Shown: positions 16,272-18,527, counted from the stretch's first letter. The stretch is DNA of 64,000 bases from an uncultured Rickettsiales bacterium (GCA_964535825.1 CAZHUC010000003.1:6485-70484), one strand, 5' to 3'. Made by a program: numbers and translations. Notes: generated by a model from the letters alone, not told the origin.

Positions 16272-18527
16272 ATGGCAATACCGATCATTAAAGGCAACGA
16301 ACTCGATGCTGACCTGTATGAGAATAATCAGCAAGCGGTCGAACTCGATAATGTTGCCGCCACAGGTAATATCAATATCGGGCTCATCATCGACTATGAT
16401 GCGCAGTCAGAAAAGCGTGCAAGTGGTAGCAATGTGACGCAGGATGTCCATTCGGGTCTGTCGTCACTTGCTGGTACAGCCAATACAAAGCCTGTACAGG
16501 CACGTGGTGCAGAGACGATCACATCGATGCCTGCTGCACAAGGGATTACACAAGAGGCTAATACTTTTGATGCGCGCGGTTTCCAAAGCAGTGCGTCCGG
16601 GCAGGACGCGAAAGATGCATCTATTGCGCCGGCAGATATTGATTCTGGTAATTCATCTGCCGTCCATGATCCCCGCAACACGGCTATTACCAATACTGGG
16701 AGTAACAGCTCTGTTGTTAATAGTGCTACAAACAATACGAATAGCAGCAATCACACAACTACCAACAACACGACTGTCATCGACACAGGCGATGTGCTGA
16801 ACGAGTTGACGGAGGTCGTCAATAACGTCACTGAAACCGTAGAGAATATCACAGAAATTGCCGGTGATATTATCAATAACACCGTCGAAAATATTACGGA
16901 TATTGTGAATAACACAATAAATAATACAGTCAGTAATACCGTCAACAGCACCGTGAATAATGTCTCGAATTTGGTTAATAATACGGTAAACAACACGGTG
17001 AATAATGCAATCAGTAATGTGTCAACTGTGCTGACCAATATTCTTGGTGATAACAAACTCATTGATATCGATATCACGAACCTGACGAATACTGTCAGCA
17101 ATGTATTGAACGATAACAATCTGCTTGACCTCGATATCACTAACATAGGCAACAGCATCACGAATGCGGTGTTTGATAATGACGTGCTGGATGTCGACAT
17201 CACTAACCTTGGCAATACCCTCACCAACGCAGTATTTGACAATGATGTGTTGGACATCGACATCACTAATTTGGGTGATGTATTGACCAGTGCCGTATAT
17301 GACAACGACATCCTCGACCTGGACATTTCTACACTCAGCAATTCATTGACCAATGCTGTTTATGACAACGACATCCTTGATGGTGACCTGAGTGTCCTGT
17401 CAGATACGGTCACGAATGCAGTGCTTGATAATGATGTGGTCGATCTGGATGTGGCAGCGCTCGTTGATAATACGACCAACGCCATCGTTGATAACGACAT
17501 CCTTGATGGCGACCTGAGTGTCCTGTCCGATACGGTTACGAATGCAATTTCAGATAATGACCTGATAGATGCAGATATAGGTGCGTTGACCGATACACTG
17601 ACAGCTGCGGTCTCTGATAATGATCTGTTAGATGCAGACATTCTGGCACTGGCAGGCGGCGAGCTGGTAGCGGGTGAAGATAATGACCTTGTCGATCTGG
17701 ATGTACTTGCCCTTGCGGATGGCAGCGTGATTGCCGGTGAGGATAATGATACGCTGGATATTGACCTCAATATATTGAGTCAGGGCAGCAACGAAGCAGC
17801 GCAGGATGAAAATGCGCTGGCGCTAGATGTAAATCTGCTTGAACCATCGGATGATGGTGCAACCCTAGGCACGCTCGAGCTGAATCTGGAATCGAACGAG
17901 GAACTAATACCGTTGGTTTCTGATATCGCCCCTGATCTGGATATCCAGGATGTACATGTGGCATTGCCAGACCTTGAAACGGCTGACACGCTGCTTGAGC
18001 CAGTGGTCGCCGATATAGCGGCTGCTCCTGAGACTATGGATGACATAACGGAAGAGCTATCTGAACCTGTTTCCGATGTAGTGGAGATGCTGTCCGGAAA
18101 CACTACAGACATTGTAGATGATATGCCTGTCATTGGTGAGATAGGTGAGGATATAGAACAGTTGGATATTGAAATGATCCTTTCTGATATAACAGATGTC
18201 GGGACGCTGCTTGAAGATAATATTTCCGATATTCTCGATATTTCCGAGGGCTCGCTGGGTGAAACGCTGGATAGCGCATTACTTGAGCTTGAGATGCTGG
18301 GTGGTGATACATCCGGTGGTTCAGGCGGCGGTGAAGCGCCTGTGGATGGCGGCCTGCTTGGCACGGTTACGGAAACGGTGAGTGATACAACATCAGGCAG
18401 TCTGGCTGATCCTGTGGCAGAGGTTGTTACAACGGTGGCAGAAGTGCTCCCGCCACCCGTCGTAACCCCGCCGCCTGTAGTGCAGGCCGTTACTTCGCTG
18501 TTCGGTGGGTTTGGATTCCGTCATTAA
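16272..18527 (+). CDS. Very acidic Asn/Asp/Thr/Leu-rich tandem-repeat protein, putative non-RTX type I secretion substrate
   Basis: 751 aa with no Cys or Trp and only about ten Lys/Arg by eye. An N-terminal NNTVxN-type region is followed by 13 x 21-aa repeats and an acidic C-terminal region ending ...SLFGGFGFRH. No Sec signal peptide. T1SS genes lie immediately downstream. Confidence 0.75.
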   Translation: MAIPIIKGNELDADLYENNQQAVELDNVAATGNINIGLIIDYDAQSEKRASGSNVTQDVHSGLSSLAGTANTKPVQARGAETITSMPAAQGITQEANTFDARGFQSSASGQDAKDASIAPADIDSGNSSAVHDPRNTAITNTGSNSSVVNSATNNTNSSNHTTTNNTTVIDTGDVLNELTEVVNNVTETVENITEIAGDIINNTVENITDIVNNTINNTVSNTVNSTVNNVSNLVNNTVNNTVNNAISNVSTVLTNILGDNKLIDIDITNLTNTVSNVLNDNNLLDLDITNIGNSITNAVFDNDVLDVDITNLGNTLTNAVFDNDVLDIDITNLGDVLTSAVYDNDILDLDISTLSNSLTNAVYDNDILDGDLSVLSDTVTNAVLDNDVVDLDVAALVDNTTNAIVDNDILDGDLSVLSDTVTNAISDNDLIDADIGALTDTLTAAVSDNDLLDADILALAGGELVAGEDNDLVDLDVLALADGSVIAGEDNDTLDIDLNILSQGSNEAAQDENALALDVNLLEPSDDGATLGTLELNLESNEELIPLVSDIAPDLDIQDVHVALPDLETADTLLEPVVADIAAAPETMDDITEELSEPVSDVVEMLSGNTTDIVDDMPVIGEIGEDIEQLDIEMILSDITDVGTLLEDNISDILDISEGSLGETLDSALLELEMLGGDTSGGSGGGEAPVDGGLLGTVTETVSDTTSGSLADPVAEVVTTVAEVLPPPVVTPPPVVQAVTSLFGGFGFRH
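17049..17867 (+). repeat. 13 tandem in-frame 63-nt (21-aa) repeats, consensus DNDxLDxDIxxLxxxxTNAVx
   Basis: Counted from the translation, aa 260-532: DNKLIDIDITNLTNTVSNVLN / DNNLLDLDITNIGNSITNAVF / DNDVLDVDITNLGNTLTNAVF ... DENALALDVNLLEPSDDGATL. Confidence 0.9.

Follow-up and report, generated by a model that had tools for sequence, protein, structure and literature searches.

A very acidic 751-residue repeat protein as the probable cargo of a neighbouring four-component type I secretion system

In a 64,000-nucleotide stretch of DNA from an uncultured Rickettsiales bacterium (GCA_964535825.1, CAZHUC010000003.1:6485-70484), referred to here as the window, a gene on the plus strand at 16272..18527 encodes a 751-amino-acid (aa) acidic protein that probably serves as dedicated cargo for the four-component type I secretion system (T1SS) encoded beside it. 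This reading is based on the adjacency of the gene to T1SS genes, on the lack of any other conserved candidate substrate, and on a tail and a composition of the kind seen in T1SS substrates. The set of T1SS parts in the window comprises two ATP-binding cassette (ABC) proteins, an HlyD-family adaptor and a TolC-family channel, the last two scoring above the cutoffs of their curated models, and we infer that the 751-aa protein, hereafter the cargo, is exported. The alternative explanations weighed below differ chiefly in the fate that they assign to the cargo after export, and only a weak one of them denies export.

The acidic protein and its gene

The open reading frame (ORF) begins with ATG, with the Shine-Dalgarno sequence GGGAG lying 7 nt upstream, and the gene and the regions of its product are the following.

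16272..18527, plus strand: cargo gene, putative type I secretion cargo, 751-aa acidic repeat protein (ORF, composition, family alignment)
16296..16409, plus strand: conserved N-terminal family motif, aa 9-46, NELDADLYENNQQAVELDNVAATGNINIGLIIDYDAQS (alignment A1)
16788..17048, plus strand: N/T/V-rich 'NNTVxN' region, aa 173-259 (sequence; AlphaFold helix)
17049..17867, plus strand: 13 tandem 21-aa DNDxLDxD(I/L/V)xxL repeats, aa 260-532 (motif scan, AlphaFold strands)
17868..18311, plus strand: acidic C-terminal region without regular repeats, aa 533-680 (composition; AlphaFold helices)
18312..18524, plus strand: C-terminal tail, aa 681-751, GGG..PVDGGLLG ... PPPVVTPPPVV ... SLFGGFGFRH, candidate uncleaved secretion signal (family-conserved islands)

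The protein is rich in Asp (12.9%), Leu (11.2%), Asn (10.9%), Thr (10.1%) and Val (10.0%), and it carries 139 acidic residues (Asp plus Glu) against 10 Lys plus Arg and 5 His, with no Cys and no Trp. Its computed isoelectric point is 4.05, which is the lowest value that the calculator returned. No signal-peptide-like or transmembrane stretch was found in it, the maximum Kyte-Doolittle hydropathy over 19 aa being 1.12. A preliminary description of this DNA had proposed an acidic 751-aa protein devoid of Cys, Trp and a Sec signal, and the ORF, composition and hydropathy confirmed it. The absence of the repeats-in-toxin (RTX) nonapeptide GGxGxDxUx, also claimed there, was verified by a regular-expression scan, in which neither this motif nor the looser GxGxD or DxDxDG gave a match in the 751 residues; additionally, no HemolysinCabind, RTX or T1SS-target domain was matched in Pfam or NCBIfam. 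The 'NNTVxN' region gave only sub-threshold Pfam matches, to amphipathic-helix families.

The acidic C-terminal part ending in SLFGGFGFRH was recognized as described earlier: within residues 521-680, acidic side chains number 45 and basic ones 0, and the last residues of the protein are ...QAVTSLFGGFGFRH. Within the last 50 residues, 68% are of the LDAVTSIF type and 16% of the KHPMWC type. An LDAVTSIF-rich composition is the criterion reported for type I secretion signals, and the cargo tail agrees with it (PMC3417381).

Three antisense ORFs lie within the gene on the minus strand (16751-17353, 17360-17770 and 17780-18364; 136-200 aa). They were rejected as genes, given their low-complexity Ser/Thr/Leu-rich translations, and are most likely by-products of the repetitive codons.

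Linkage to a secretion and signalling cluster

The cargo gene is embedded in a cluster of transport and signalling genes, the remaining members of which are listed below.

15639..16058, plus strand: stand-alone response-regulator receiver, 139 aa, directly 5' of the cargo gene (Pfam Response_reg, E 2.7e-16)
18596..20263, plus strand: ABC1, type I secretion ABC permease/ATPase that lacks an N-terminal domain and has a degenerate ATPase (Pfam ABC_membrane and ABC_tran)
20260..22416, plus strand: ABC2, type I secretion ABC permease/ATPase with a Cys-free N-terminal extension of ~160 aa (Pfam, NCBIfam, alignment)
22420..23811, plus strand: HlyD-family periplasmic adaptor (TIGR01843, 360.3 bits, cutoff 208.65)
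23813..24775, plus strand: receiver fused to a GHKL/anti-sigma-kinase-like domain (Pfam HATPase_c_2, sub-threshold)
24759..27539, plus strand: hybrid histidine kinase with PilJ-type sensor, HisKA, HATPase_c, two receivers and Hpt (Pfam; position conserved in related loci)
27536..29671, plus strand: second sensor with CHASE8-like N-terminus, receiver and Hpt (Pfam, NCBIfam)
29635..30993, minus strand: TolC-family outer-membrane channel, convergent, at the cluster end (Pfam OEP; TIGR01844 type_I_sec_TolC, 260.8 bits, cutoff 225.15)

The linkage was evaluated by scanning a profile of the N-terminal motif against 185,579 species genomes and JGI metagenomes, together with the contigs of individual relatives. 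Eighteen further loci with a family member were retrieved, 14 of which had enough flanking DNA to be judged, and the cargo adjoins the same gene cluster in 13 of these 14. Thus, the link with type I secretion genes directly 3' of the cargo, which had been supposed from the window, held across related genomes. The full order cargo, ABC1, ABC2, HlyD, receiver/ATPase and kinase is found in loci L001, L003, L004, L007 and L008, and a partial or truncated arrangement in L006, L009, L011, L014, L016, L017 and L018, whereas L013 is rearranged yet adjacent, with an OEP gene beside the cargo; a TolC-type gene was seen at the cargo cluster in the window and in this one related locus. Identity to the window proteins is 40-67% for the transport and signalling components, whereas in the cargo it is limited to ~45% over ~50 N-terminal residues and to the tail.

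The signalling genes are conserved along with the transporter. A homologue of the stand-alone receiver occupies the same place in L002 (83% identity) and L006 (44%), and receivers also precede the cargo in L014 and L018. Orthologues of the receiver/HATPase_c_2 protein (45-61% identity) were found in the same position at eight other loci, and a partial homologue of the second sensor protein follows the kinase in L001. An exact copy of the HlyD protein is present in the assembly of the SRA run SRR15237804. The 15.7-kb cargo, secretion and phosphorelay cluster is flanked in the window by tRNA-Gln (15488-15562) and tRNA-Met (31244-31320) genes, and in L001 the flanks differ, with resistance-nodulation-division (RND) pump, MarR and CheR-type genes. 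The cluster, as a module, may be mobile or island-like.

An orphan family member was found in L019 (7947-10565, 872 aa), with the N-terminal motif and a ...VDAGVLF...IGVHH tail and without DND repeats, between the genes for an NHL-repeat protein and a Ysc84-like protein; it may rely on secretion genes at another place in its genome. Such a copy away from T1SS genes would fit an alternative in which the protein is not exported at all and acts as a cytoplasmic polyanion, for example as a scaffold or modulator of the neighbouring phosphorelay, leaving the ABC, HlyD and TolC proteins to export something else, and so would the presence of four signalling proteins in the cluster. However, this explanation is very improbable, considering that the cargo lies immediately 5' of ABC1 in nearly all loci with no other conserved candidate substrate, that the lack of Cys, the very low Lys/Arg content, the richness in Asn and Thr and the conserved extreme C-terminus are traits of T1SS substrates, and that no cytoplasmic domain was recognized in the protein by Pfam or NCBIfam.

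An asymmetric pair of ABC proteins

The best-scoring models for the two ABC proteins were LssB (347 bits for ABC1 and 415 bits for ABC2), HlyB and PrtD, with cutoffs of 693, 726 and 510 bits. On these scores, ABC1 and ABC2 are T1SS-like ABC proteins of an uncurated subfamily. In all aligned orthologues of ABC1, Asn stands where the catalytic Glu of Walker B should be (D-N, not D-E) and the H-loop His has been lost, with 'SED' in its place; the signature, SPGLKQ, is near-consensus and reads (S/P)PGLKQR across the orthologues. On the other hand, all aligned ABC2 orthologues retain an intact Walker A, a Walker B with D-E and the H-loop His ('THR'), and it is their signature that is degenerate (PSSGF). 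The Walker A of the window ABC1 has Arg in place of Lys (GAPGCGRTT), where all orthologues have GKS or GKT; judged from the alignment, this is a further degeneration of a subunit that was already catalytically dead.

The combination of one competent and one degenerate site is a hallmark of obligate heterodimeric ABC exporters. Since the degeneracy of the two proteins is complementary in a head-to-tail nucleotide-binding dimer, their sequences imply that ABC1 and ABC2 form an obligate asymmetric heterodimer with one active ATP site.

The asymmetry extends to the N-terminal domain, which is found only in ABC2, where the extension of ~160 aa can be aligned with the N-terminal portion of the LssB profile. 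These 160 residues contain no Cys and gave no Pfam Peptidase_C39 match and no PDB sequence match. Export of a leader peptide through a C39 peptidase was therefore rejected, because a domain without Cys cannot be a leader peptidase; in addition, when the double-glycine leader consensus was applied to the cargo N-terminus, the family alignment revealed no GG motif at the leader position. By analogy with HlyB, the ABC2 N-terminal domain may instead dock unfolded substrate. Two irregular forms of ABC2 were noted among the related loci: the ORF of L009 (13787-15538) encodes just 583 aa, apparently without the N-terminal extension, and in L011 (11873-14097) ABC2 is split in two ORFs, which could reflect assembly errors, frameshifts or real variants.

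The protein family

An exhaustive HMMER scan of 1.84 billion cluster-representative proteins returned 42 matches, of which ~25 are true relatives and the remainder are proteins with 21-residue leucine-rich repeats (LRRs) or 21-residue coiled-coil repeats. A word-indexed search of 5.8 billion proteins returned a single full-length relative, P0001, and with the N-terminal profile only short fragments. It took the exhaustive scan to make the family visible. No match was obtained for the whole cargo in Pfam or NCBIfam, and four segments searched separately also gave nothing meaningful at E values up to 10; PDB sequence searches with the whole protein or the N-terminal profile returned nothing, and full-text literature searches for ATGNLNIG, DNDLIDL, GGLFGHH and DNDILD retrieved no papers. 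The suspicion that the protein falls outside described families was thus borne out, and the family to which it belongs is rare. The clusters of the relatives that were looked up were all singletons, the two with a source name being a 'hypothetical protein' in NCBI metagenome-assembled genomes (MAGs), and the relatives all come from metagenomes or MAGs, with source records that depositors labelled as Rickettsiales, Alphaproteobacteria, Pseudomonadota or Bdellovibrionales.

In the alignments, conservation across the family is highest in a 45-aa N-terminal motif and not in the repeats. The motif reads LDADLY..QQ..D.ENISATGNLNIG.VIDYDA, and over 19 relatives (alignment A1) its mean column identity is 50%, with G32, N35 and G37 invariant, in comparison with 21% for the full-length alignment (A2). 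It has no match in Pfam or PDB. Downstream of it, true relatives share a Thr/Asn-rich stretch, an 'xxVNNxxxV' region, and '(D)NDLIDxDLxxL' units that vary from two or three degenerate copies to many regular ones. The C-terminus comprises a PVDGGLL island, then a stretch rich in Pro (PPVV) and, at the very end, a tail resembling GGLFGHH, so that the Gly/hydrophobic end first noticed in the window protein proved to be conserved family-wide in its Gly, hydrophobic and His character. Full-length relatives have 500-1100 aa and at most 2.1% Lys plus Arg (up to 3.1% in one N-terminal fragment), with 0-6 Cys and 0-3 Trp per member, and a single isolated strict match to the RTX nonapeptide was found among 21 members.

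Large regular DND arrays are present in the window protein (13 x 21 aa) and in P0004 (~14 x 23 aa), and smaller ones in the L006 protein, P0002, P0006, P0003, P0005, P0008 and P0042 (period ~18). Relatives without a regular array keep just 2-3 degenerate 'ALINxDLxLL' units. Considering that many T1SS-linked relatives do without it, the DND array cannot be a general requirement for secretion; judged from the family sequences, the regular array is a lineage-specific expansion rather than a family signature.

A conserved N-terminus combined with a variable middle could also be expected of a surface-retained polyanionic coat or adhesin, threaded through the T1SS and held by its N-terminal module at the TolC channel, as in LapA-type adhesins, with the repeats displayed. 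In type I export, which proceeds C-terminus first, the N-terminus emerges last, and it is precisely the N-terminus that is the best-conserved part of this family; variable middles between conserved ends are typical of surface proteins. Additionally, the nearest ABC model, LssB, is linked with large repetitive surface proteins. However, the conserved module is only ~45 aa long, without a Pfam or PDB match and with moderate predicted structure, and no LapG-like protease or LapD-like regulator was detected among the cluster or window ORFs scanned. The LapG cleavage site is a di-alanine, and the family consensus ENISATGN has no Ala-Ala. Therefore, retention of this kind is considered unlikely.

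The 21-residue repeat array

The 13 regular repeats with Asp at fixed positions, initially described at aa 260-532, were recovered by a motif scan, with units beginning at aa 260, 281, ... 512 and all spacings exactly 21. The unit consensus is D-N-D-[LVI]-L-D-[LI]-D-[ILV]-x-x-L-x-[DN]-x-[LV]-T-N-A-V-x, in which D1 and D8 are invariant and N2, D6, L12 and A19 are kept in 12 of the 13 units. The self-identity at lag 21 was 0.57; in 2000 shuffles, no lag exceeded 0.22. The array is an old one, with a mean pairwise nucleotide identity of 0.51 among units and with mixed synonymous codons for the conserved Asp, Leu and Ala residues; the pattern is therefore kept by protein-level selection and not by recent DNA duplication. 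Tandem Repeats Finder reported only short stretches, of 63- and 126-nt periodicity.

AlphaFold was run from the single sequence (mean pLDDT, the predicted local distance difference test, 45) and with a 17-sequence family alignment (mean 54). Both runs predicted one beta-strand of 6-9 residues per repeat ('VLDVDITNL') over ~aa 285-540, with pLDDT of about 50-70, preceded by a long helix that ends at aa 257 and starts at aa 173 in the single-sequence run or at aa 193 in the alignment run (pLDDT ~70); the latter also placed low-confidence helices at aa 586-676. In the strand L5-D6-L7-D8-I9, Leu and Ile alternate with Asp, and stacked units would form Asp ladders requiring counter-ions, which is the basis of the cation-gated folding idea. 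For the proposal of a Ca2+-binding solenoid, the models gave periodic strands at low confidence, and a Foldseek search of PDB gave no significant match, the best being left-handed beta-helix enzymes (E 0.47-0.53), so that neither solenoid nor metal site is demonstrated. A Ca2+-binding beta-solenoid is, on these models, plausible but unproven.

A period of 21 residues corresponds to three heptads, and the array could accordingly be read as an alpha-helical coiled-coil fibre, that is, an exported stalk continuous with the helical NNTV region. Unit positions 2, 5, 9, 12, 16 and 19 (N, L, I, L, L/V, A) do fit 4-3-4-3 heptads, the search matches P0026, P0031, P0036 and P0037 are clear 21-residue coiled-coil repeats, and AlphaFold predicted a single long helix in the preceding region. 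However, Asp, Asn, Thr, Val, Ile and Gly, all of them poor helix formers, abound in the units, and strands were predicted in both AlphaFold runs. Furthermore, the core DNDLIDLDL recurs every ~18 aa in P0042, 21 in the window protein and ~23 in P0004, and since periods of ~18 and 23 are not heptad multiples, a solenoid fits this variation better than a heptad coiled coil, which is held to be distinctly unlikely.

Most of the non-family matches of the exhaustive scan are 21-residue LRR proteins, and against one of these the repeat region gave a gapless, in-register BLASTP alignment over 240 aa (E 2e-13), in which Asn2 and 'LDxD' of the repeat pair with the LRR Asn and 'LDL'. The IRREKO class of 21-residue LRRs has the consensus LxxLxLxxNxLxxLDLxx(N/L)xx (PMC2946307). 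Positions 6, 9, 11, 14, 15 and 16 of it were present in 83-100% of the units, whereas the defining positions 1 and 4 were present in only 8% and 25%, so that the LxxLxL half fails; the overall score was equalled in 13% of column-permutation trials (p = 0.13). No Pfam LRR model matched even at E up to 10, and Foldseek gave no LRR match. Membership in the IRREKO LRRs was rejected on these grounds, and in its sequence the repeat behaves like half an LRR without being classed as one.

This resemblance bears on the possibility of a host-directed effector, in which the repeats would form an IRREKO-like LRR arc binding a eukaryotic or other target and would be exported by the T1SS as the Ehrlichia effectors are. 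Beyond the LRR matches, the gapless alignment and the six shared IRREKO positions, several source MAGs are labelled Rickettsiales by their depositors, and the Ehrlichia tandem repeat proteins (TRPs) are acidic tandem-repeat T1SS substrates (PMC3417381). Nevertheless, the failing LxxLxL half, the permutation control and the negative Pfam and Foldseek results count against an LRR arc. Additionally, the window encodes MipZ, many sensor kinases and RND pumps and carries a B12 riboswitch, a content unlike that of the reduced genome of an obligate intracellular organism. On balance, a host-directed effector seems rather improbable.

Another protein of the exhaustive scan, P0013 (959 aa, unrelated), joins a collagen-like N-terminus to ~20 copies of the 21-aa repeat DKSVLDLSVNRIDSSLNTIFA, closely similar, position for position, to the window repeat DNDVLDVDITNLGNTLTNAVF.

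Regulatory DNA

A 17-nt element, TAAACY-N7-GTAT, is matched exactly twice in the 64-kb window, where 0.09 matches would be expected, once before the cargo and once before ABC1, the latter copy accompanied by a hairpin.

16211..16227, plus strand: TAAACY-N7-GTAT copy 1, candidate promoter or operator, ending 44 nt before the cargo start (pattern scan)
18550..18566, plus strand: TAAACY-N7-GTAT copy 2, ending 29-30 nt before the ABC1 ATG (pattern scan)
18558..18587, plus strand: perfect 13-bp hairpin followed by a T-run, between cargo and ABC1, terminator-like, attenuator-like or operator (-23.1 kcal/mol, z -4.3)
L003 12356-12372, L007 13238-13254 and L008 6130-6146: copies of the element upstream of ABC1 in relatives (pattern match)

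In L001, the element was found at both places, before the cargo and before ABC1 (9946-9962 and 12278-12294), and it lies 30-34 nt upstream of ABC1 in L001, L003, L007, L008 and L017; across loci, the copies lie 30-45 nt before start codons. Its spacings match no known promoter or operator consensus, those of sigma-70, extracytoplasmic function (ECF), sigma-54 and CtrA sites included.

The ABC1 start given by the ORF tool, TTG at 18557, falls inside the hairpin. The likely start is the ATG at 18596, which agrees with the orthologue N-termini, M..(R/Q)F, and the hairpin is therefore intergenic. Clear intrinsic terminators are present at the cargo-ABC1 junction in L001 and L003. Such an arrangement would suit production of the substrate in excess of the transporter, as reportedly happens at the hlyA-hlyB junction.

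Proposed mechanism of export

Taken together, these observations suggest how the cargo could be handled. The polyanionic chain would remain unfolded in the cytosol, where its uncleaved C-terminal region (PVDGGLL...PPVV...GGLFGHH) would be recognized, and it would then be threaded in the C-to-N direction through ABC1/ABC2, HlyD and TolC. After export, each DNDxLDxD unit would form a strand with an Asp face and a Leu/Ile face, and the units would stack into a solenoid only once divalent cations such as Ca2+ neutralize the Asp ladders, a Ca2+-dependent stacking that would replace the role of the RTX nonapeptides in classical substrates. The 45-aa N-terminal module would exit last and is likely to be the functional or retention end. 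The phosphorelay probably co-controls the cargo and the transporter operon through the shared TAAACY-N7-GTAT element, and the hairpin or terminator between cargo and ABC1 may keep the cargo in excess of the transporter.

In its most extended form, this model describes DNDxLDxD as an RTX-independent acidic solenoid that is gated by cations and resembles half an LRR in its pattern, with a Ca2+ ratchet, an asymmetric ABC heterodimer and a phosphorelay through which the cell would sense or tune its own export, perhaps via the N-terminal motif; so complete a scheme is put forward tentatively, as a possibility whose odds are less than even.

Several observations weigh against the export reading or its mechanistic elaboration. 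Export is argued here from the neighbourhood of the gene and the features of its sequence, the scores of both ABC proteins lie far under the curated LssB, HlyB and PrtD cutoffs, and the L019 family member has no T1SS genes within 8 kb. P0001, P0010, P0015, P0020 and P0023 are T1SS-linked and have other repeats instead of a regular DND array. AlphaFold confidence was low (mean pLDDT 45 and 54) and the best Foldseek E value was 0.47. Finally, Pfam recognized no DNA-binding output in the four signalling proteins of the cluster, and because no cluster protein has a recognizable output of this kind, the link between the phosphorelay and the element is speculative.

Other features of the window

Outside the cluster, a MipZ ATPase gene (11467-12609, E 5e-109) is an alphaproteobacterial marker, in line with how the related MAGs were labelled by their depositors. 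A cobalamin riboswitch (1304-1504, 93.6 bits) precedes a 438-aa ORF (1573-2889) without a Pfam match at E 1e-4. A second tripartite exporter (34715-40267) consists of an OEP protein (34715-36040), which is nearest, at sub-threshold level, to the divalent-metal exporter subunit IhpA, an adaptor (36030-37022) and an AcrB-type RND pump (37034-40267). Additionally, a 688-aa ORF on the minus strand (49566-51635) matched no Pfam family at E 1e-5.

Significance

Type I secretion is known almost wholly from RTX substrates and homodimeric HlyB-type transporters. The system described here would represent an alternative T1SS, with its own Asp-rich cargo repeat and N-terminal module, an obligate ABC heterodimer in which both the catalytic site and the accessory domain are single, a TolC gene in the cluster, and a co-inherited phosphorelay. 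Type I substrates without RTX repeats are already known, so the kind of cargo is not in itself new; the cargo family, the 21-residue DND unit, the N-terminal motif, the asymmetric ABC pair and the co-inherited phosphorelay appear undescribed. If cation-dependent folding is true, the logic of folding outside and staying unfolded inside would have evolved more than once, and a compact 21-residue module would be available for engineering secreted proteins. The ABC pair offers a test case for the division of ATP hydrolysis and substrate docking in type I secretion, and the family marks poorly known uncultured alphaproteobacteria, some of them labelled Rickettsiales by depositors.

Comparison with known systems

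The Ehrlichia TRPs are acidic tandem-repeat proteins exported by a T1SS through an LDAVTSIF-rich C-terminal signal (PMC3417381). Like the cargo, TRP32, TRP47 and TRP120 are alphaproteobacterial, very acidic (isoelectric point ~4) and endowed with tandem repeats other than the classical RTX; however, their repeats are different, and no sequence similarity to the cargo was detected, the TRPs being absent from the matches of both the word-indexed and the exhaustive search. The TRP genes are not known to be clustered with transporter genes or a phosphorelay. For type I secretion in the Rickettsiales, literature searches retrieved nothing beyond the known Ehrlichia and Orientia work and general phylogenomics.

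The IRREKO LRRs share with the repeat array the 21-residue period, and the Asn and 'LxxLD(L/V)' half of the two can be aligned in register along 240 residues, whereas LxxLxL, the first half, is out of step by one residue and the units here have 4-5 Asp/Asn each and an extreme negative charge. IRREKO proteins would usually be expected to carry Sec signals. The likeness to LapA and the RTX adhesins lies in ABC proteins nearest to the LssB type and in a conserved N-terminal module followed by a variable repetitive middle and a putative C-terminal signal; in contrast, the module of the present family is much smaller (~45 aa) and unrelated, and Ig-like or VCBS repeats, LapG/LapD and the di-alanine site are missing.

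The general organization is that of the RTX/HlyA-HlyB-HlyD-TolC system. In both cases, an acidic, Cys-poor, repeat-rich substrate without an N-terminal signal is encoded directly 5' of ABC and HlyD-type genes and is associated with a TolC-family channel, a C-terminal signal region, here a candidate that is probably uncleaved, is present, a hairpin follows the substrate gene, and Asp-rich repeats could fold outside the cell upon cation binding. The differences are that GGxGxDxUx is essentially absent here, its place being taken by the 21-aa DNDxLDxD repeat, that a conserved N-terminal motif is present, and that two ABC proteins are found in place of one homodimer.

With regard to the transporter, a parallel is found in the export of the multifunctional autoprocessing RTX (MARTX) toxin of Vibrio by RtxB, RtxE, RtxD and TolC, a four-component T1SS whose paired ABC proteins, adaptor and TolC are all required for a single, very large substrate (PMC3034196). 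The use of two related ABC proteins, an adaptor and TolC for a single repeat-containing substrate is common to both systems. The present system, for its part, has an unrelated substrate, an N-terminal domain in one ABC protein alone, an ABC1 devoid of catalytic residues in all orthologues, and a conserved phosphorelay within the cluster.

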